Source of the DNA: Chiloscyllium plagiosum
Taxonomy: Eukaryota
Assembly (NCBI RefSeq): GCF_004010195.1
Contig: NC_057712.1
Coordinates: 93,986,256 to 94,050,255 of the forward strand
Direction of reading: 5' to 3'
DNA: 64,000 nt
The position numbers were made by a program, and so were the translations under genes. Positions 11,533-63,821 of this stretch are shown here, one piece after another. Position 1 is the stretch's first letter. Each line of letters starts with the position of its first letter. Under the pieces are notes generated by a model that was not told the origin of the DNA, ran no database searches, and was given only the letters and a program-made list of their open reading frames with translations.

Positions 11533-12095
11533 AGAGTCTAGATTAGAGTGGTGCTGGAAAAGCACGGCAGGTTAGGCAGCATCCAAGGAGCAGGAAAATC
11601 AATGTTTCAGGCCTTCATCAGGAATGAGGCAGGGAGCCTCCAGGGTGGAGAGATAAATGGGAGGGGGTGGGGGGGTGTGGCTGGGGAGAAGGTACCCAAG
11701 AGTACAATAGGTAAATGGAGGTGGGGATGAAGGTGATAGGTCGGAGAGGAGGGTGGAGCTGATAGGTGAGAAGGAAGATTGGCAGGTAGGACAGGTCATG
11801 AGGATGGTGCTGAGCTGGAAGGTTGGAACTGGGCTAAGGTGGGGGTAAGGGAAATGAGGAAACTGGTGAAGTCCACATTGATGCCCTGGGGTTGAAGTGT
11901 TCCGAGGCGGAAGATGAGGCATTCTTCCTCCAGGCGTTGGGTGATGAGGGAGTGGCGGTGGAGGAGGCCCAGGACCTGCATGTCCTCGGCAGAGTGGGAG
12001 GGGGATTGAAATGTTGGGCTACAGGGCTGTGGGGTTAATTGGTGTGGGTGTCCCGGAGATGTTCCCTAGTGCGCTTTAGGGAACACCTCCAGGAC
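11533..12095 (-). mobile_element. Penelope-like element 3' part (GIY-YIG C-terminus plus terminal repeat, family B)
   Basis: ORF 11796-11981 (MQVLGLLH...QRLEEECLIFRLGTLQPQGINVDF) matches the PLE endonuclease C-terminus; the terminal sequence is shared with 15920-16094, 38181-38300 and 63738-63821. Confidence 0.88.
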
Positions 12096-12209: not shown

Positions 12210-15200
12210 AGATGCTGAAGAACTGGGGAAACGGGAGCAGTCTTCTGAAGAGGAGGACAAGGACATTGGGCAGGAGGGAGCTGTCATTATCTATGACAGA
12301 CCCTAACGGCATTGAGTGAATCAAGCCAGACTGGACCACACTGATACCTGCTTCCAATATGGTGCAGCAGACCATCATGATGCTAGAATCTGGTTTACAG
12401 AGTGAGGGTGAACTTCAGCTTCTATTGTTTTGGATTTGTGTTTCTTTTTACTGTCTGTATATTAAAGCTCATGTTTGGAATTGTTTGACTGCCTGCCAGT
12501 AATTGATGTCCCCAACTGGGTAATGATAAGCTGCAGGTTTCCAGTGGGGATAGGGTAGTGCTGGTTTAGAGGGTGTTCACGTGGGATATACCTATGGACG
12601 GGTCAGCTGTGTGGTCTGGTGGATTCAACAGCAATGAGGGTGAGACAATGGGGTGGACTGTGTGAGGGGATGTCAGCCATGCCAGCTATGTGCGATGGGC
12701 AGTATGGATTTGTGGATGCTGTGCCACAATATTGCTGGTGAGGGGTCTATGCTAGTTTGCCAACGCTTGTCAAAGATGCCACTGGTGCAAAATTTTGAGA
12801 GTGTGATGGATTTAATTTTAAAAAATCAGGGCATCTAAAAGCAGCTTCACATTTACTATTGTTAGGAAGAAGTTACTTTAAAGAGTATTCCATCATAAAT
12901 CTTTCCAAAGAATAGAAGAAACAGACTATGGAAAGTTTGAAAGCCATGAAGGCATGCTTTTAAAACTCTAAGCAAATGTAACTTATGGATGGTATATGTT
13001 GTCAACATGTGACTTCCACACAGAATCCGGCAACACAAAGAATGATCTAATTAAAGACAGGGCTGCATCAGGCATAGGAAATCTGCAGTAAGAGAATGTC
13101 TATTGCGAGAGGAGAAACATACTCAGTGGAAAGACATCAAATTGTGCAGAAGGACTGATGTTGTAAATGATCAACTAAAACATATTCAAGAAGGGACAGA
13201 ACAGACCTATTGGTTTTACTGAGTAATTCAAGATCCAGGAGAATATGTATCAAGATGTTTGACTAGATCAACATGACTGGCAGAGTCATATGACTTTAGT
13301 TTTACCCTTAGTGAGATGCTGGGAGACCTTCTGGTATGTGGGATTGATGATGTAATCATGCAAAAGCGCCTCATGGCTGAAGGTGAACTGGACTTCAAAC
13401 AGGCACTACAACTGGCTTTATCATATGAAAATGCAGCAAGTGGAGCATATGAGTTGCAGGGTGATCCGATGGAAGTGGTGACCATCCCAAACCTGACTGA
13501 ATTTGGGAGTCTTGAGTGAAGGCAATTGCATAGCCTCACTCAGGGCATATCCTGAACAGAGAGACTCTCTAGGTCAGCCCACAGCAAAAACCCAAAACAA
13601 ATCCAAGCCTCGGCCAAGGAGTTAGAATTTTCCTCAGGATTTGGGCCAGCAAGCTAATGTAGTTGCAGCAAATGAGTCCCACCAAACCTGGATTGAGTAA
13701 GAGAACTCATAGGCTGGTATCCAAGACAGTGCCAATCCTGGAAAATACACCTACATCTGGTTTGGAACGGTTAAATTGCTTTGCACTGTCCAAATCAGAA
13801 CCAATCAAAATAAACGCCTGTTTAATAATAGTCACTTGGTTCTAATGGATGTTGATATCAGTGTAGCTGTTTCAGTGATCACTGAACCAGTCTTTGACAA
13901 AATTCATATTAGACTCCAGCTCTTCAGTTTGCTCCGCTAGACTGACAACCTATACTAGGGAACCTTTACAAATTAAGGGTAGAACTTTGGTTCCAGTCAC
14001 TTATGAGAAGCTGCTAGTTCAGTTGCCGCTGATTGTAGTAAAAGGTTCAGGCCCAAACTTGCTAGGGTGAAATTGGTTGAGAAAGATTCACCTGGATTGG
14101 CTCAACATTTTTCAATTAGAAAATGGCTGTCTGAATGAAGTCCTAATTAATTCTGGGAAGTTTTTCAGGAAGGTCTAGGGCCTATCAAAGGAGCCAAAGC
14201 CACCTTACATGTTCACCAGGAAACAATTCCACGATTCTGCAAGGCACTCCTAGTGCCTTATGGGCCAAAGTCAAACCAGTCTAGTTGTGTAATGGGCAAC
14301 ACTGGTGGAACCAATTGTGAAGCATGAAGGGTCAGTTTGCCTCTGTGGGGATTTTAAACAAATGGTAAACCACTTTTCCCAGCTGGATAAATACCCAAAT
14401 CTTTGCTTAGAGGATTCATACACAAAGCTGGCAGGGAACTGTCCTTCCCGAAGCTGGGTATGAGCCATGTGTACTTGCAATTGCAGTTAGATGAGGATTT
14501 CCAGAGGTATGCTGTAATTAATACCCATACAGGTTTGTACCAATATACAAGACTGCCATTTAGGGGTATCGTCAGCCTGTGCAATTTTTCAGCGGATGAT
14601 ATAGAAAACTTTACAAGTTTTCTACCCCAGGTCACCATTTAACTAGATGACTTGATAATAACAAGGAAGACCAAGAAAGAGCACTTAGAGAACTTGGTCA
14701 TAGTGCTTAGATGTTTCTCCCAGACAGGCGAAAGCCTTAGATGGGAAAAATGTGTGTTCCTATTTGGACTACACTATTGACAAGACTAGGTTACATCTGT
14801 TGGAAGATGATCAAAGGTGCCCTGGCTCCCACGTCTGTACTGGAGCTTAGATCTATCCTTGGGCTGGTGAATTATTATGGAAAGTTCATACATAACCTGG
14901 CCTCCATCCTGGCACCTACATGTCAACTCTTAAAAAAGGGTCAGCCTTGGAAATGGCCATGTAGCCAAGTCATAACTGTCAGGGAAGTGAAGAAACAGCT
15001 ATCATCGTCTATGGTGTTTGCACACTATGATTCCAAACAAGATCTGGTATTGATCTATGATGTCTCTCTGCATGGCAGCGGGGTAGTATTAGCTCATAAG
15101 TGGCCCAATTGAGAGGAATATCATTAGCATATGCATCCAGGACTTTGGCTAATGCAGAGTGTAAATATGCTCAGATAGCGAAGTAAGGTTTGGCTGTCAT

Positions 15201-15900: not shown

Positions 15901-16098
15901 CTAGGCCAAAATGAGGACTGCGGATGCTGGAGATAGAGTCTAGATTCGAGTGGGGCTGGAAAAGCACAGCAGGTCAGGCAGCATCCGAGGAGCAGGAAAA
16001 TCTGATTTCTGATGAAGGGCCTTTCCCCGAAACATCGATTTTCCTGCTCCTCGGAGGCTGCCTGACCTGCTGTGCTTTTCCAGCCCCACTCTAACTGC
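15901..16098. mobile_element. Fold-back PLE-terminus insertion (family B) nested in Gypsy
   Basis: Arms about 15948-16002 and 16037-16091 are reverse complements; 9-bp direct repeat gaacaaaac at 15892-15900 and 16099-16107. Confidence 0.85.
16006..16040 (+). ncRNA. Minimal hammerhead ribozyme-like motif (family B, partly decayed)
   Basis: CTGATGA (16009-16015), A, GGGC-CTTT-CCCC, GAA, ACAT, C, GA; ACAT is likely CpG-decayed ACGT. Confidence 0.6.
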
Positions 16099-19386: not shown

Positions 19387-20403
19387 GTGCATGTGCATGT
19401 CCAGCAGTCGCTTAAATGTCCCTAATGAGTCTGCTTCCACCTCTACTGCGAGCAACGCATTCCATGCATTCACAACTCTCTGCGTAAAGACCCTACCTCT
19501 GACGTCTCCATTATACCTTCCTCCTAATATCTTAAAACCATGACCCCTTGTGCCAGTCAATCCTGCCCTGGGGAAAAGTCTCTGGCTATTGACTCTATCC
19601 ATGCCTCTCATTACCTTGTATACCTCGATCAAGTTACCTCTTTTCCTCCTTGTCTCCAGAGAGAAAAGTCCGAGCTTATAAACCTGTCTTCATAAGACAA
19701 GCCCTCCAGTCCAGGCAGCATCCTGGTAAACCTTCTTTGCACCCTCTCCAAAGCCTCTGTATCTTTCCTCTAATAGGGCGATCAGAACTGCACACAATAT
19801 TCCAAGTGTGGTCTCACCAGGATCTTGTAGAGCTGCAGCAAGACCTTGCAGCTCTTAAACTCAATCCCACTGTTAATAAAAGCCAAAACACCATGTGCTT
19901 TCTTAACAACCCTATCCACTTGGGTGGCAACTTTGAGGGATCTATGCACTTGAACGCTAAGATCCCTCTGTTCCTCCACACTGCCAAGAATCCTGTCTTT
20001 AATCCTATATTCAGCATTCAAATTTGACGTTCCAAAATGCATCGCTTCGCATTTATCCAGGTTGAACTCCATCTGCCATTTCTCAGCCCAGTTCTGCACC
20101 CTGTCTATGTTGCGCTGCAGCCTGCAATAGCTCTCGATACTATCAATGGCACCTCCAACCTTTGTGTCATCTGCAAATTTACTAACCCACCCCTCAACCT
20201 CTTCATCCAAGTCATTTATAAAAAATACAAAGAGCAGAGGCCCAAGAACAGAGCTCTGCGGGACACCACTCACCACTGACCTCCAGGCAGAATACTTTCC
20301 ATCTATAACTACTCTCTGCCTTTCTGTCAGGCAACCACTTCTGAATCCAGACAGCTAAATCTCCCTGTGTCCCATACCTCCTGGCTTTATGAATAAGCCT
20401 ATG
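19387..20403 (-). mobile_element. CR1 RT fragment of a different subfamily
   Basis: ORF 19782-20276 has SGVPQSSVLGPLLF..FINDL..KFADDTK..VRPHLEYCVQF; ORF 19348-19632 has the C-terminal FTQRVVNAWNAL. Confidence 0.92.
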
Positions 20404-33658: not shown

Positions 33659-34387
33659 ACAGGTTTATTCGGAAGCACTAGCTTTCAGAGCACTGCTCCT
33701 TCATCACATGGTTGTGGAGCAGGACCATATGACACAGAATCTATAACAAAAGATTACAGTGTCATGCAACTGAAATGATATATTGAACAGATTAGATTGC
33801 TGTTAAGTTTTTCATCTTTTATGCACGCACCACGCACATGTAAGTCTATGGGGTGAATTTGCATTGGCAGAATTATATTTGCAGATACACTGTATTTTGC
33901 TCAAAAAGCACACAGTCTGTTCACAGTCAATTCAGATAGTCAATCCATGTAATATTTTATAAATTCCACTTTGGAAATAAAATCAATCTGACTCAAGATT
34001 GGTATACAGACAGACTCTAACCTCACATCTTTAATGCATTGTCTGAGCTGAGATGTCACCTTTATTTTTACAAAACCTTAAGTTATCTTGAGAATTTGAC
34101 TTAAAAGAAGCTCTGGGATTTACATATTAATGAACCAAAACCTGAAACCCATTCTAAAAGATGAAAGACTTAACAGCAATCTAGATTTGTTCAATATTTT
34201 GTTTCAAATCCATGACACTGTAATCTTTCCTATAAATTCTGTATCTTATGATCCTGCTCCGCAACTACCTGATGAAGGAGCAGTGCTCTAAAAGCTAGTG
34301 CTTCCAAGTTAACCTGTTGGACTATAACTTGCTGTTGTGTGATTTTTAACTTTGTCCACCCCAGTCCAACACCGGCTCCTCCATTTC
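33659..34387. mobile_element. PLE-terminus element with inverted arms (family A)
   Basis: Arms about 33659-33820 and 34156-34317 are inverted around a spacer; degenerate TSD caattccagtgtt (33646-33658) / caatgccggtgtt (34388-34400); CTGATGAAGGAGC core near 34269 with GAAA mutated. Confidence 0.8.
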
Positions 34388-38180: not shown

Positions 38181-39087
38181 CTGGATTAGTGGTGCTAGAA
38201 AAGCACAGCAGTTCAGGCAGCATCTGAGGAGCAGTAAAATCGATGTTTCGGGCAAAAGCCCTTCATCAGGAATACAGGCAGAGTGCCTGAAGGATGGAGA
38301 GATAAATGAGAGGAGGGGGGGGGTGGGGAGAAAGTAGCATAGANNNNNNNNNNNNNNNNNNNNNNNNNNNNNNNNNNNNNNNNNNNNNNNNNNNNNNNNN
38401 NNNNNNNNNNNNNNNNNNNNNNNNNNNNNNNNNNNNNNNNNNNNNNNNNNNNNNNNNNNNNNNNNNNNNNNNNNNNNNNNNNNNNNNNNNNNNNNNNNNN
38501 NNNNNNNNNNNNNNNNNNNNNNNNNNNNNNNNNNNNNNNNNNNNNNNNNNNNNNNNNNNNNNNNNNNNNNNNNNNNNNNNNNNNNNNNNNNNNNNNNNNN
38601 NNNNNNNNNNNNNNNNNNNNGAGGTGCGGGAGGAGGTGTGGGCGCAGGTTTTACAGTTCCTGCGGTGGCAGGGGAAAGTGGCAGGATGGGAGGGTGGGTC
38701 GTAGGGTGGGCATGGAGCTGTCCAGGTAGTCACGGAGGGAACGGTCTTTGCGGAAGGTGGAGAGGGGTGGGGAGGGAAATATATCCCTGGTGGTGGGGTC
38801 TTTTTGGAGGTGGCGGAAATGTCGGCGGATGATTTGGTTTATGCGGAGGTTTGTAGGGTGGAAGGTGAGCACCAGGGGCGTTCTGTCCTTGTTACGGTTG
38901 GAGGGGTGGGGTCTGAGGGCGGAGGTGCGGGATGTGGACGAGATGCGTTGGAGGGCATCTTTAACGACATGGGAAGGGAAATTGCGGTCTCTAAAGAAGG
39001 AGGCCATCCGGTGTGTTCTGTGGTGGAACTGGTCCTCCTGGGAGCAGATACGGCGGAGGCGGAGGAATTGGGAATACGGAATGGCAT
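38181..39087 (-). mobile_element. Penelope-like retroelement (Neptune-like), 5'-truncated; contains N gap 38344-38620
   Basis: ORF 38651-39094 (AIPYSQFLRLRRICS..FFRDRNFP..TPLVLTFHP) is the PLE RT thumb/linker; CHRRNCKTC zinc knuckle; family B terminus. Confidence 0.92.
38238..38273 (-). ncRNA. Minimal hammerhead ribozyme-like motif (family B)
   Basis: Minus strand reads uc-CUGAUGA-A-GGGC-UUUU-GCCC-GAA-ACAU-C-GA, with a perfect stem II. Confidence 0.68.
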
Positions 39088-45465: not shown

Positions 45466-46075
45466 TTTTATTCATTCATGGGATGTGGTTGTCACTGGCA
45501 TTTGTTGACAATCCTTTATTGCCCTTGAAAAGATCAGTCACTTTCTTGAATGCAATTGAATGAGTTGCTATGTCTTTTCAAAGGGTTTGTTGTTTGTAAG
45601 TTATGATGTGGAGGAGCCAGTGTTGGACTGGAATGAACAAAGTTAAAAATCACACAACACCACGTTATAGTCCAACAGGTTTATTTGGAAGTACTAGCTT
45701 TCGGAGTACTGCTCCTTCAACAGGTAGCTGTGGGACAGGATCATAAGACACAGAATTTATAGTAAAAGATTTTGCTGTAAATTTTGTGTCTTATGATCCT
45801 TCTCACAGCTACCTGATAACGGAGCAGCGGTCCGAAAGCTAGTACTTCCAAATAAACTTGTTGGACTATAACCTGGTGTTGTGTGATTTCAACTTTGTAA
45901 GCTACACAGGGTAAGGATGCAGGTTTCCTTCTCTGGAGATACCAGTGAACCAGATGGAGTTCTATAATACTTTGACTGCCTTTACTGACACTAGCTTTGC
46001 ATTCTGTTTGATTGAATTTAAATTCCCCAGTTGCTTCGTGGAGTTGTTGCCACATCATTAGTCCAGACTTCTGCA
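45466..46075 (-). mobile_element. MetaSINE-like element split by a PLE palindrome
   Basis: Tail ttattcattcatgggatgtgg at 45468; reverse Meta-like core gggtaaggatgcaggtttccttctctggagataccagtgaaccagatgg from 45910. Confidence 0.6.
45601..45893. mobile_element. Fold-back PLE-terminus palindrome (family A)
   Basis: Arms of about 125 bp (about 45637-45765 and 45771-45898); 8-bp TSD tttgtaag (45593-45600, 45894-45901); decayed hammerhead cores on both arms. Confidence 0.88.
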
Positions 46076-46345: not shown

Positions 46346-46546
46346 ATGATTTGGAGATGCCGGTGTTGGACTGGGGTGTACAAAGTTAAAAATCACGCAA
46401 CACCAGGTTATAGTCCAACAGGTTTAATTGGAAGCACACTAGCTTTCGGAGCGACACTCCTTCATCACAAGGAGCGTCGCTCCGAAAGCTAGTGTGTATC
46501 CAATTAAACCTGTTGGACTATAACCTGGTGTTGTGTGATTTTTAAC
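46346..46546. mobile_element. Fold-back PLE-terminus palindrome (family A)
   Basis: 10-bp TSD aatagcactg (46336-46345, 46547-46556); arms about 46385-46462 and 46469-46546. Confidence 0.92.
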
Positions 46547-47339
46547 AATAGCACTGGTAATCAATATCCCAATTTATATTGGTGCTACTGCTGATGAGAA
46601 TGTAACAGACTTGAGTGCGCAAAACCATCAAAACGGAACACCATGTTTCACGATTCCCACATAATCAAAATTCCAACAACAGTGTCTCCAGCTAATATAG
46701 TTAAAGGTTAGCTGCAGCCAATAGTGGCATTAGGTTATATCCAGCCTTTCCAAGCGGCCTGTAGGTGGACTAATGCTTCAGTCCACTTGTACAGATCAAC
46801 AATGCACTTTTGACCAGCATGATTCTGCTGACCTCTCTGTCATCAGAACAATTGTTGGCCAAACTGGCAAAGCTGTTAAAATAATTTTGCAATAAATCTC
46901 TACGACTCTATAACTCTAAATGTACATGTAGAAATTTTGGACGTACAAAGTTGGTTCAGTGTTATACTTGAAAAATGATCTATTACTATTAGATCCATTC
47001 CACAGTACAGGGCAGACGGAGTTCTCCAGCAAGGAGTTTGGTTTATATTTCAGAAACAATTCATGGTCAAGCCAGAGCCTTCCTTTTTTTAATTGCAGAA
47101 AATATCTTCAACCTGCTGATAATACACTGGTCCACCCTAAGTTTATAGTGCAAATACATTTTTAAAAATTGCCATCAACCTTTCATTTGTGTACTTATCA
47201 ATTTACTGTGCTCTTTGCAAATCAGATTAGATAAAGGTCACTGATAAATTTCATAGATATTATAAAGGTCACAGGGGTAGAAACATTTCAGAATGGATTT
47301 ACATAGAAGTCATACTTGATAAAATACACCGGAATTCTT

Positions 47340-50295: not shown

Positions 50296-52345
50296 GTGTT
50301 GTTTCTGTTTATGGCGCAAAAATGTGGGTGAAAATGAAATGTAAATAAACAGTTATTAAAACATTAAATAATTAAGAATAACTGTCAAAGTGTGTTGGTC
50401 CCTAATGAAGGTGAAATGTTTTTATCCTGCCTCTTAGTCAGAATGCTTTAAGTATAAGCTTCATTCTAGGAGTTGAGCTTCTATCCTTGCCTCAACAGTC
50501 TATGCAGTACTGAGGGAATGCAGAGGCAGAGTGTGGCCCTTACTCTGGGGGAATGGAGAAGGTCATTGACCTTGATTTTGGATTGCTGGCCATTTTGCTG
50601 CACTCTGGCTGTGGCATTGACCTGGGTAGAAACCTCAGATGAGGCTGGCAGGGATTGGCATGGTTGTATTCTTGGTCAGTGCCCTGGGAAGATCTCTGGA
50701 CTACCATGTCCACCTGGATCTCCAGGTGCTTGGCAGAGTCATCAGTGCCATCTTTTCCTTCTCTGGCATGTTCAGATTCTGTCAAGCAACAGACAGGACA
50801 GCTTCAGGATGCTAGTACAGCTGCACAACAGGGTCTTAAAGATGGCATGAACACGAGGGATTTCAGTGGATATCCACTGAGTGGCAAGTTATTATCAAAT
50901 GGCACATGGTAAGATGGTGCTGAAATCAAATGTTAGTGATGACATAGGGGTGGGGTTAAGTTTTTAATACAACGTGTTTGGCCAGATAGGCTGAGAAATC
51001 TCATTCGTCCTTGCAATGGGAAACCTTTCAACAAACCAAAGGTAGATTGGAGCCTAAAGAATGTAAGATTCATCGCATTGAAACAGTCATTTCTACCCAA
51101 AAGAGTGAATAAGATTGTTTTGAACAAAGGGACTTGGATCAAAATGTTTGACATGTGCCTGATGAACGGAAATTAGGCCTTAATGAGATTGATAGATCTT
51201 TCTGTAATACCTGGTTTTATAATAAATAACAAAAAGAATAAATATTTACAAAATTTTTATTCAAATTAAGAATGCAGATTTTCTGTTGTACCCATAACTG
51301 AGGCAAAACCGAAAGTGTAGGTTGGGTAGAATGAATTTCATTGAGGCCACAGCTGAGCAAAGAAATGTCATGTTGATTAACACTTAGTGGGACCTCGGGA
51401 CTTTAGCCTTCTTTGCACCTCAATCAGCAACTGGCAAGCTGACTTCAGATTTGTCATTATCCTGATCATTCAGTCTTACAAATGTGTTTGTTTCAATGAA
51501 CACAATATAATTACACCCAGAATCCATAAACTCTATAAGTTTAATAAACCAGAGTCAGCAGATTGTGATTTCCATAGTGCCTGTAAGTCATGGGTCAAAA
51601 TCTGGAAGCTCAGCTGGACTGCAAGCTGCTTTAGTGCAGTTATGTCCCACACATTTTGGAAGTTACCTCATGTCTGGTATGATTACTAAGGTCAGGTACA
51701 AACTGAAATACTAACGTGGCTGAATTAATAACAGGTGAAGTTAATACCATGAAAACAGTTTAAAGACTTTATAGGTAACAGGTTAATGAAAACATTATAA
51801 TTTCAGTTGTAATTTAAAAGATTAATTCCACTTCCAGATGAAAGTGGCTCTCACAAGAACAGAATTGCACACAGATTTTGTTTGTTCATTTTAATGCTTT
51901 TCTGAGATTTAACTCCTGTGATCACTGCTCCTGACTTGAGATTGCGGAATCACCTCTATTTTATTGCTGTGTACATCATATGTTTATAAGTTCATTCAGG
52001 ACAATGTAACCCAAACTCGCCTGTCTCAGGAGAGGGTGATACAATGTCCATGAAATGGGAAAGGTGGAAAGCCCTGAGCATTTACAAAGTGCCTTTCATT
52101 TCCCCTTGATATTCCAAAGAGCTTCACAGCAAGTGATCAGCTTATGAAGCACAATCATTATTGTTCTGTACCAAACCGATCAGAAGACTGATTGTCTATT
52201 TTTTTCCTCAACAAAAGAACAAATCTTCGGATTGATTGCAAGTAACAGAAAAGTCACTATCCAAGATTGTCTTGTCTTCCTCGTTGTAAATGGATGTGGA
52301 ATAGAGGCAAGGCACACACTTTGACAGTCACAAATCAACTTAACC

Positions 52346-52548
52346 TCGATTCGGAGATGCCGGTGTTGGACTGGGGTGTACAAAGTTGAAAATCACACAA
52401 CACCAGGTTATAGTCCAACAGGTTTATTTGGAAGCACACTAGCTTTCGGAGCGACGCTCCTACAATCACCTGATGAAGGAGCGTCGCTCCGAAAGCTAGT
52501 GTGCTTCCAATTAAACCTGTTGGACTATAACCTGGTGTTGTGTGATTT
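52346..52548. mobile_element. Fold-back PLE-terminus palindrome (family A), well preserved
   Basis: 11-bp direct repeat tcaacttaacc (52335-52345, 52549-52559); near-perfect arms about 52383-52461 and 52477-52555. Confidence 0.92.
52467..52501 (+). ncRNA. Minimal type I hammerhead ribozyme motif with apparently intact core
   Basis: CAC-CUGAUGA-A-GGAGC-GUC-GCUCC-GAA-AGCU-A-GUG: stem I CAC/GUG, 5-bp stem II, palindromic AGCU in place of stem III, CUA cleavage triplet. Confidence 0.75.
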
Positions 52549-53149
52549 TCAACTTAACCATTTTTTGATGCCAAGGTTAACGCATTTGAATTTAGCCATA
52601 GCTGAGAATCAAGCGTGTGACTGCAGCTAAGCAAACATTAGAACAATGAATGTCCTACAGAGCAAGTGCTTAACGGTCCTTTTCTCTGTTTGTCAAACAC
52701 TGCAAGCTGCAGTCACAGTTTGCATCAAAACATTTCACTACATCATTAAAACATCTTTACATAATATTATCACTCACAACAAAAAGAAAGAACGAGCATT
52801 TATAAAACATTTCATCACATGCTTAGACCTTCCCAAAATTATCCAGTCAATTCATTTTGAAGAAGTGTTAATATTGTTTGTAAGCAAACAAGGCAACTAA
52901 TCTGCAGTCCAGCAGGCTGGCCAATTCATCCTGTAGTTCTGCTGGTTCAATGGAATCTCCAACGTCAGCAAATGGTACTCCCAGTAGGACAGGTGCAGTG
53001 CTGGGCAAGATGCCCGCGCAGAGGTGCTGGAAACACTACTAGTCACAATGTTCTTCTGCTGTCCACATGTTTTGATGCATGGTTTTGAAGCTTGGACTGT
53101 GTGGGTCTACTGAACAATGACTGCTGGAAGCATTGTGGGTTGTATGGGA

Positions 53150-60900: not shown

Positions 60901-61177
60901 GGGCGGCATGATGGCACAGTGGATAGCATCAGGGCTGCCTCACAATGCCAGAGACCTGGGTTTAATTCCTGCCTGGGTTTCCTCCGGGTGATCCGGTTGC
61001 CTCCCACAGTCCAAAAATGTGCAGGTTAGGTGAATTGGCCATGCTAAATTGCCCATAGTGTTAGGTGAAGGGTAAATGTAGGGGAATGGGTCTGGGTGGG
61101 TTGCTCTTCAGAGGGTCGGTGTGGACTTGTTGGGCAGAAAGGCCTGTTTCCACACTGTAAGTAATCTAATCTAATCT
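60901..61177 (+). mobile_element. HE1-type V-SINE nested in CR1
   Basis: gggcggcatgatggcacagtgg...ggcctgtttccacactgtaag(taatc)n; host CR1 is continuous across it (tctctataa|gatcacccctc). Confidence 0.92.
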
Positions 61178-63737
61178 AAGATCACCCCTCATCCTCCGAC
61201 ACTCCAGGGAAAACAGCCCCAGCCTATACAACCTCTCGCTATAGCTCAAATCCTCCAACCTTGGCAACATGCTTGTAAATTTTTTCTGAACCCTTTCAAG
61301 TTTCACAACATCATTCTTGGAGGAGGGAGACCAGAATTGCACACAATATTCCAAAAGTGGCCTAACCAATGTCCTGTACATGATGACCTCCCAACTCCTA
61401 TATTCAATATTCTGACCAAGAAAAGAAAGCATACCACACGCTTTCTTCACTATCCTATCTTCCTGCGACTCTACTTTCAAGGAGCTATGAACCTGTATGC
61501 CAAGGTCTCTTTGTTCCATCCCTAGGACCTTACCATCAAGTGTATAAGTCCTGCTAAGATTTGCTTTCCCACAATGCAACACTTCGCATTTATCTGAATT
61601 AAACTCCATCTGCCACTTCTCAGCCCATTGACCCATCTGGTCCAAATCCTGTTGTAATCTGAGGTAACCCTCTTCTTTGTCCACTACACCTCCATCTTTG
61701 GTGTAATCTGCAAACTTATTAACTATACCACCTATGTTCACATCCAGATCATTTATATAAATGATGAAAAGTCGTGGACCCAGCACTGATCCTTGTGGCA
61801 CTCTACTGGTCACAGGCTTCCAGTCTGAAAAACAACCCTCCAGTACCACTCTATGCTTTCTATCTTTGAGCCAATTCTGTACCCAAATGGCTAGTTCTCC
61901 CTGTATTCCATGAGATCTAACCTTGCTAACCAGTCTGCCATGGGGAACCTTGTTGATTGCCTTACTGAAGTCCATACAAATCATGTTCACTGCTCTGCCC
62001 TCATCAATCCTCTTTGTTACTTCTTCCAAAAACTCAATCAAGTTTGTGAGACATGATTTCCCACGCACAAAGCCATGTTGACTATCCCTAATCAGGCCTT
62101 GCCTTTCCAAATACATGTGAATCCTGTCCTCAGGATTTCCTCCAACAACTTGCCCACCACCAGTCTATAGTTCCCTGGCTTTTCCTTACTGCCTTTCTGT
62201 AATAGTGGCACCATTTTAGCCAACCTCCAGTCTGATGGCACCTCACCTGTGACTATTCATGATACAAATATCTCAACAAGGAGCCCAGCAATCACTTCCC
62301 TAGCTTGCCACAGAGTTGTAGGGTACACCTGATCAGGTCCTGGGGATTTTTCCACCTTTATGTGCCCCTTAATGATGTCCTGTTTCTTTCTTCGCCTTAA
62401 TATTAATTTGTTGTTTGTTTTACTGTTTTCTTTTGTCACTTCTTCCTTTTTTATGAATAAACTATTGCTTTAGAATTGATGTGATTGTTGGTGTCACCAT
62501 GTTATTTGGTAACTTTGGCCTCATCAATTATATCATTAATGGCATTAATAGCATCACAGTTAAACGCTTGTACAGGAATTGAAATGTAACACAAAAGGTA
62601 TTAGAGCAGTCTGACTCATGTTGCAACAGATAGTGCAGAAGACTTTCAACTTGAGAACTATTCAGTGACAATGTCCTCTTTTAAAAATAAAAGTATGTCA
62701 CATTGAGTTACAAGAGCTCAGCAGAATTCAACAAAGCTGCTATTAAAATGACAATTCCAATAACTGAACCTCTAATTGCTTGGTGGAACAGGACGTAAAC
62801 ATTGCCAAAGACATTTTGCATTCAATAGGAAACGACAAGGCTTGAGAAAAAGTACACCAATTTATACATCATGCTAAATTAAAAGAAAGAACTGCAGATG
62901 CTGGAAATCTGAAATAAAAACATATATTGTTTTTCTTGGTGGCAGAAAATTTCACAGGCTCACCACCCTCTGGCTGAAGAAATTCTCCTTATCTCAGTCA
63001 TAAGTAACCTGTCCTGAATCCTTATATTGTGTCCCCTAGTTCTGGAATGAATGAACAAAGGGAATAGGCAATAAATGAAGTAATGTAAACCTACTTCCAT
63101 TTCAAAATTCCTGTAATACATTCTTGCCAGAAGTAGTAAAATAGTTGCTAGGGATCAATTTCCCCCAGGCTTTGGTATGCTGAAGTACATACCTGGAACC
63201 TGCACTTGCCAGTGGCAAGATGAGCTGAGCAGGAATGACTCAAATGTAGGCCCATCATGTTCATCATCCTTGAAGATGCCTCTCCAACCAGAAGTCAAAA
63301 ACTCTGGAGCCTCATTAGCCTACCAGGACAGGTTAGCACTGCTTAGTGTCCATGAGTCTACCTCAGCATGGAGGCAGATTTGCTGGCCTGCACAACTGTG
63401 AAGAGATACATAAAATCTAAGTCAACAAGTCCATGGGGATGGAAGGCGTAACCTGCCCATTGGATTGGACTCATCCAAGGTTGCAGTCCTTCATACTGGC
63501 TCCTTTGTCAATGACACGTGATGACTTCCCCTCCAGCCTGCCACAGGTAGACAGTTTCTCTAATGGCAGCCCACTTGTGCCAAAATACCAACAAGGATGT
63601 GCAATAGGGTGATCGCCTCCATGGAATAAGAATCTGATCTAATTCCCAGCCCATCTCTACAAAAGTTCAGTCATGAAGCGTTAATCATCTGAGAGAAGGA
63701 ATCGTTCTCAGAGCACTTTACAGACGCTTCAATAGCT

Positions 63738-63821
63738 GCTCCTTGGATGCTGCCTGAACTGCTGTGCTCTCCCAGCACCACTAATCCTGGTTTCCAGCAT
63801 CTGCAGTCATTGTTTTTACCT
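63738..63821 (+). mobile_element. 84-bp PLE 3' terminus insertion (family B)
   Basis: 13-bp TSD cgcttcaatagct (63725-63737, 63822-63834); matches the reverse complement of 38183-38232. Confidence 0.88.

Follow-up and report, generated by a model that had tools for sequence, protein, structure and literature searches.

A young head-to-head pLTR insertion of a likely Penelope-like family carries a minimal hammerhead motif, predicted to be inactive, in Chiloscyllium plagiosum

Penelope-like elements (PLEs) carry minimal type I hammerheads, for which a consensus of the form NNN CUGANGAH G..C GAAAN-palindrome-NU H NNN has been given (PMC4209133). According to the accessible part of that source and its supplement, these are mostly solo motifs of truncated PLEs, occur as opposite-strand pairs 100-700 bp apart, reach thousands per vertebrate genome, include a GAAA-GC-U variant in one turtle and one schistosome family, and show weak cleavage even in dimeric form. 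Inverted pLTRs with a 9-10-bp target-site duplication and a 31-bp tail are described in PMC3846280, tails of 30-40 bp in PMC8557442 as well as in PMC11167929 and PMC3846280, and short 3' extensions in PMC8969392, again in the portions available. The hammerhead of an Anolis element cut only with protein and was dispensable for insertion in vitro, according to the accessible text of PMC11167929. We analysed a stretch of 64,000 nucleotides from Chiloscyllium plagiosum (contig NC_057712.1, positions 93,986,256 to 94,050,255 of the forward strand; hereafter the window), in which a sequence-only reading had noticed an apparently intact hammerhead within a palindromic insertion. Very probably, the locus represents two truncated pLTRs of a likely PLE family of very high abundance, inserted head to head as a young unit of 203 bp, with the hammerhead as a passenger predicted to be inactive.

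The insertion consists of two pLTR copies joined head to head, with an 11-bp target-site duplication and a 37-nt 'tail' on one side only. The two copies of the duplication (52335-52345 and 52549-52559) match exactly, and this 11-mer occurs just these two times in the whole window. The left arm (52346-52461, minus strand, 116 nt) is an inverted copy, 5'-truncated at the extra A before stem II of the hammerhead and without CUGAUGA, but it retains stem II, GAAA, AGCU-A-GUG and AATAAA (52428-52423). It alone carries the tail (52346-52382, minus strand), a 3' extension of the element that matches sister copies at 46348, 45610 and 34382, as well as the loose-end consensus behind 52555 in the three contig runs X1, X5 and X7. 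The right arm (52462-52555, plus strand, 94 nt) is a direct copy that starts 8 nt upstream of hammerhead C3 and has no tail; loose ends ahead of 52462 reveal a family upstream sequence unlike the left arm. In the orientation of the element, the left arm begins with the extra A at 52461 and extends to the end of the tail at 52346, and the right arm stops 37 nt earlier, both 3' ends facing host DNA and the 5' ends abutting centrally. Right arm and right-hand duplication overlap by 7 nt (52549-52555), the end of the one being the start of the other, a microhomology between target and element. The fold-back arms 52383-52464 and 52474-52555 are 98% complementary, with a folding energy of -162.8 kcal/mol (z = -25). 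The fold-back, the 11-bp duplication and the absence of CUGAUGA from the opposite arm, as the sequence-only reading had described them, are all confirmed by these results. The 203 bp contain no ORF and are pLTR throughout. An assembly artefact is disfavoured on indirect grounds, namely the duplication, the tail and the existence of sister copies. A perfect 15-nt inverted repeat (50381-50395 and 52314-52328, 1.9 kb apart) ends just left of the insertion.

On the plus strand, positions 52467-52501 read CAC, CUGAUGA, A, a 5-bp stem II with a 3-nt loop, GAA, AGCU, A and GUG. Stem I (52467-52469 with 52499-52501) is paired at 3/3 positions and stem II (52478-52482 with 52486-52490) at 5/5; the conserved CUGAUGA occupies 52470-52476, A52477 is the extra nucleotide between 9 and 10.1, and the G10.1-C11.1 pair is G52478-C52490. 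The palindromic AGCU at 52494-52497 (15.2-16.2), which replaces helix III, is identical in 8/8 family arms in the window. The numbering and the cut predicted after A52498 follow established hammerhead knowledge, and G12 (52491) is, in hammerhead chemistry, the catalytic base. Using a strict descriptor on both strands (3-bp stem I, CUGANGAH, stem II of 4-8 bp, GAAA, palindromic A..U, H), we recovered this one site in the window and none in 500 dinucleotide shuffles, so that the motif proposed earlier, with all core nucleotides, a 3-bp stem I, the extra A and AGCU in place of stem III, is indeed present. Its assignment to the PLE-type minimal type I hammerheads also holds, as the sequence matches exactly the consensus in the accessible supplement of PMC4209133. 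Rfam gave no match at gathering threshold in the window, hammerhead families included; relaxing the limit to E<=10 brought up nothing but miRNA-type hairpin models and a single snoRNA model, all sub-threshold, and we set aside the weak miRNA-model matches as merely reflecting the perfect hairpin. Across seven window arms three pairs of stems I and II change on both sides, with values equalled in 39-248 of 500 shuffles and a MAFFT alignment that puts three rows out of register at the 3' side.

Three further loci of the same family lie in the window. The sister at 46346-46556 has the same layout, with a 10-bp duplication and a 39-nt tail, and a full core in neither arm, while that at 45593-45904 is older, with the same layout, an 11-bp duplication with one mismatch, a tail on one arm and a microhomology of about 5 nt. 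An older inverted insertion of about 725 bp at 33659-34383 includes a longer upstream region and has its tail on the right; scripted search found no duplication there, and a possible degenerate one was seen by eye only. In this older subfamily (34255-34285 and 33690-33722) the 5' strand of stem II has a 7-nt complement upstream of the core; the alternative hairpin would close over CUGAUGA, and only 4 nt of it are left in the young subfamily. A stem-loop in the tail had z = -0.2 to -1.8 in four copies and no significance. The family aligns with 45,254, 39,294 and 41,785 contigs from X1, X5 and X7, where contig depth is not copy number.

A second hammerhead family with a different stem II is found at 38269 (minus), 16009 (plus) and 11621 (minus). 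Directly 5' of the hammerhead at 38269 is an ORF fragment with 91-94% identity to Chiloscyllium punctatum proteins that in full length contain RVT_1 or GIY-YIG, and the genome therefore holds endonuclease-type PLEs. Pieces of this second family span 38183-39082 (minus), 15935-16094, 11533-11680 and 63736-63816; the 38-39 kb copy has a partial ORF spanning an N gap (38344-38620), the palindromic tetramer has decayed in all three core-bearing copies, and 15935-16094 also folds back. Fragments of LINE-type RT (RVT_1) and a weak match to RT_RNaseH_2 lie at 61166-62164, 19782-20354 and 14741-15109, and about 13 kb of the window is self-repeated. A Pfam search of 150 of the 175 non-repeat open frames of at least 62 aa, together with six long ORFs, returned no host-gene family above cut-off.

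For the family of the 52335-52559 locus we found no associated RT or GIY-YIG ORF; DNA-pattern scans of two viral, one metagenome and one prokaryote collection gave 0 loci, and a protein search with the translated left arm gave six candidates, none at E<=1. Its likely membership among Penelope-like elements therefore rests on motif and architecture, and the locus displays the features described for endonuclease-bearing (EN+) PLEs: an adjacent inverted, 5'-truncated pLTR, a 30-40-nt tail at one end and a short duplication. In the literature on sharks, Penelope and palindromes we found no paper on this family, which Repbase or Dfam may hold. We conclude that the insertion is real, lies well above chance expectation, and is ordinary for a PLE-rich genome.

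The two arms of the 52335-52559 locus differ at one of 79 bases (four of 78 in the 46 kb sister), which indicates that little time has passed since insertion. An intact hammerhead is found in only one of the eight tabulated hammerhead-bearing arms, the right arm discussed here, and its intact core is best explained by the youth of the copy. In the contig runs X1, X5 and X7, G12>A reaches 8.7, 7.7 and 9.7% of depth, compared with 9.7, 8.5 and 11.3% for C>T at the paired C and 9.0, 7.8 and 10.9% for the change of the loop CpG G. Given these similar rates, the loss of G12 reads as ordinary methyl-CpG decay, as at other CpG sites. Non-CpG core positions vary little in X1 (A14>G 0.02%, A15.1>G 0.12%, A17>G 0.6%, with downstream A's at 0.5-4.3%), which may reflect constraint on source elements or an alignment bias towards young copies, and is compatible with some selection at the level of copies. 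In run X5, unlike X1 and X7, A>G accounts for 8-15% of depth at several positions within 52493-52530, with no T>C excess. The single difference between the arms, at 52511, falls exactly where two common alleles coexist in the family (A in 33-42% of depth), while both arms have the C at 52550, which is rare in the family (about 3.5% of depth) and completes the match to the target duplication. This combination suggests either two templates or conversion from arm to arm.

We then considered reads placed on 52446-52745 from four runs, in which RNA is represented by about 2% of the poly(A) single-cell run X21. Of 2,456 X21 reads on this stretch 2,454 are partial and none lies on the right flank beyond 52565, which indicates that they come from other family copies; over the flank 52576-52745 depth is zero in all four runs. 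Across 52466-52525 first-mate-minus reads exceed the others about 4- to 9-fold, and then drop from 1,708 to 398. A-tails are present in 1,006 of the 2,456 reads about 30 nt past the cut site, 451 behind 52527 and 555 behind 52530. They start 12-15 nt after the hexamer ATTAAA (52510-52515) and are followed in the reference by a GU-rich stretch, and the reference is not A-rich there; among the 18 loose ends listed, none shows an A-run in DNA at 52527 or 52530. From these observations we infer a real poly(A) site, with a likely signal at 52510-52546 (plus strand) and tail addition at about 52527-52530. The repeat end is thus probably a working poly(A) site on the hammerhead strand. AATAAA makes up about a third of family depth, the ATTAAA allele accounts for 76% of sense-class reads, the hexamer A(A/T)TAAA is retained in 7/8 family arms in the window, and the palindrome offers such a signal on both strands. 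Polyadenylation in a pLTR beside a hammerhead was not found in the literature searched, which included the accessible part of PMC2377424 and few subscription papers.

Upstream of 52462, many of the X21 reads continue into native element sequence, in which at least three kinds are present. We accordingly interpret the A-tailed reads as the 3' termini of longer transcripts that span the ribozyme and have not been cut. Depth runs over the cut site without a step (1618, 1548 and 1668 in successive bins), and no pile-up of read beginnings or ends at the cut site is seen among the positions listed; this is weak evidence, as a 30-nt 3' product would be lost from such a library. We rejected opposite-strand joints at 52501, the cut site of a 2-nt-shorter subfamily, as a sign of in vivo cleavage, because the aligner breaks there too (494-583 loose ends per contig run). 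None of the eight window arms starts at the cut site. Among the listed places of 52493-52539 in X21, A>G is 6.0% in the sense class and 3.4% in the antisense class (7 places; 7.7 and 1.5% at A17, in 123 of 1594 reads), T>C is 7.0% in the antisense and 3.0% in the sense class (6 places), and G>A also differs between the classes (7.4 vs 4.6%), the reads being non-independent. The strand-biased A>G and T>C exceed DNA levels, and it is possible that fold-back RNA undergoes A-to-I (ADAR) editing, which would inactivate the cut site at A17.

The sequence-only reading had treated this copy as a plausible working ribozyme, able to cut after A52498 on meeting a second copy in trans. The core bases and both helices are intact and the isolated 35-mer forms its stems (predicted pair probability 0.99 for stem II and 0.84-0.89 for stem I), partners are abundant genome-wide, sense RNAs of the family exist, and PLE hammerheads have been found to cut as dimers in vitro (PMC4209133, and the review PMC6765202, as far as accessible). 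Yet any plus-strand read-through RNA would include the left arm, and both stems fall to a probability of 0.000 once at least 22 nt of that arm are folded along, in agreement with the sequestration by the opposite arm that had been proposed; in the full hairpin the hammerhead helices would cost 45 kcal/mol. Even for the right arm alone (52462-52559) stem I has a probability of 0.001, and for an RNA ending at 52530 of 0.16. The AGCU duplex is worth -2.5 kcal/mol, and in nearest-neighbour energies, which leave out tertiary contacts and Mg2+, the double hammerhead of two monomers (-16.3 kcal/mol) is less stable than two separate monomers (-18.2 kcal/mol) or a stem-II-swapped dimer (-30.3 kcal/mol), in which the partner's core would serve the cut site of this copy. 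The strict descriptor finds no second intact copy on either strand of the 64-kb window, the part of X21 covered (about 2%) yields no RNA read on the right flank, which weighs weakly in the same direction, and in vitro rates of such motifs are low. Since the other arm is predicted to abolish both helices and the window holds no intact partner, activity here is unlikely: we regard cleavage in trans by this copy as highly improbable, and give its activity in vivo equally little credence. The motif at 52467-52501 is thus predicted to be a passenger, sequestered and inactive in this place, and the earlier suggestion of a working copy is not supported.

We propose that the insertion began with nicks made by a PLE protein in the two strands, about 11 nt apart, and that reverse transcription was initiated at two internal positions of the element RNA separated by about 37 nt, as in vitro work has shown for the Anolis element, one priming probably being aided by the 7 nt of microhomology. 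Both short cDNAs would have stopped at the front of the hammerhead and then been joined head to head. The hammerhead would likely work, if at all, in source elements, with two pLTRs on one RNA and protein-assisted folding, whereas dispersed copies would decay neutrally; the same pLTR is also the probable source of the poly(A) site, about 30 nt past the cut. The short arm shows 7 nt of microhomology here, about 5 nt at 45.9 kb and none at 46.5 kb, and the 7 nt are awkward beside the RT starts at non-homologous sites reported for Anolis in the accessible part of PMC11167929. The inverted arm could instead have been made by self-primed fold-back synthesis on one template, as proposed in PMC3846280 (accessible portion), rather than by two primings. 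The rare C at 52550 common to both arms favours one source in this way, but the arms carry the two common 52511 alleles, which favours two templates and would require later mutation or conversion if only one had been used; the sister junctions at 46 kb and 45 kb overlap by only 0-2 nt, and two RT start sites explain the asymmetry of the tail directly. We consider fold-back priming on a single template unlikely. It is far less credible that the palindrome is itself mobile, MITE-like or retrozyme-like, and copied as a whole hairpin, even though several TSD-flanked palindromes of similar size occur in one window and non-LTR retrozymes are reported to derive from PLE pLTRs (bioRxiv 10.64898/2026.07.22.740005, accessible portion). 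The centres vary, with arm starts relative to C3 of -8/+7 here, +6/+1 at 46 kb and about -45 at 45 kb, and the reads contain many distinct opposite-strand joints and junction variants. The ends are asymmetric (37 nt), the duplications measure 10-11 bp, there is no tandem array, and 52335-52559 has neither the symmetric terminal inverted repeats nor the fixed common interior of a MITE.

Taken singly, this copy matters little, as stubs of this already described kind are very numerous. The family, in contrast, is a useful test bed for the in vivo role of PLE hammerheads, since it offers young intact copies, RNA reads and varied junctions in abundance. The poly(A) site beside the cut site is the one lead worth following: if confirmed, a poly(A) site past the cut would explain the presence of two hammerheads on one RNA, and would imply that cleavage strips the transcript of its tail. 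As a much more speculative extension, to which we assign little probability, the pLTR could resemble the R region of an LTR with a ribozyme inside, with RNA starting just before the hammerhead and poly(A) added about 30 nt after the cut. Every element mRNA would then carry exactly two hammerheads, forming an inherent dimer, and its cleavage would take off the cap as well as the poly(A). The very numerous dispersed stubs would be portable poly(A) sites for host transcripts (on both strands in palindromes) with a protein-switchable cut shortly before the tail, silenced by ADAR in fold-back copies.

Among described systems, the motif most resembles the minimal hammerheads of PLEs (Cervera and de la Pena 2014, PMC4209133), with which it shares type I topology, a short stem I, an extra base between 9 and 10.1, the G10.1-C11.1 pair, a palindromic 15.2-16.2 and the lack of stem III; it differs in its stem II of 5 bp with a 3-nt loop. 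The portion of that supplement available contains no shark entry, and 'shark', 'Callorhinchus' and 'Chiloscyllium' have no match in one of its files. Non-LTR retrozymes (bioRxiv 10.64898/2026.07.22.740005, accessible part) are likewise non-coding and pLTR-derived with a type I hammerhead, and have been reported from one chondrichthyan, but they form head-to-tail tandem arrays with a hammerhead in each unit, whereas the present locus has one inverted pair and a single complete motif, and lacks a second head-to-tail unit with a full hammerhead. Poseidon of Anolis, PAc (Frangieh et al. 2024, PMC11167929, accessible part), is similar in that two internal RT starts bound the tail, both strands are nicked and extended, the hammerhead lies upstream, and no RNA-seq ends fall at the cut site. 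The PAc ORF starts inside stem II, whereas the ATG in the core at 52467-52501 leads to a stop after seven codons, and PAc primes without homology in vitro, whereas two of the three palindromes here have 5-7 nt of short-arm microhomology. As regards the insertion as a whole, the inverted-pLTR units of EN+ PLEs (Arkhipova et al. 2013, PMC3846280; Craig et al. 2021, PMC8557442) differ, in the parts of these papers available, from 52335-52559, which is without ORF and all pLTR, but share with it the head-to-head pLTRs, a duplication of 8-11 bp, a 30-40-nt tail at one end and 5' truncation.
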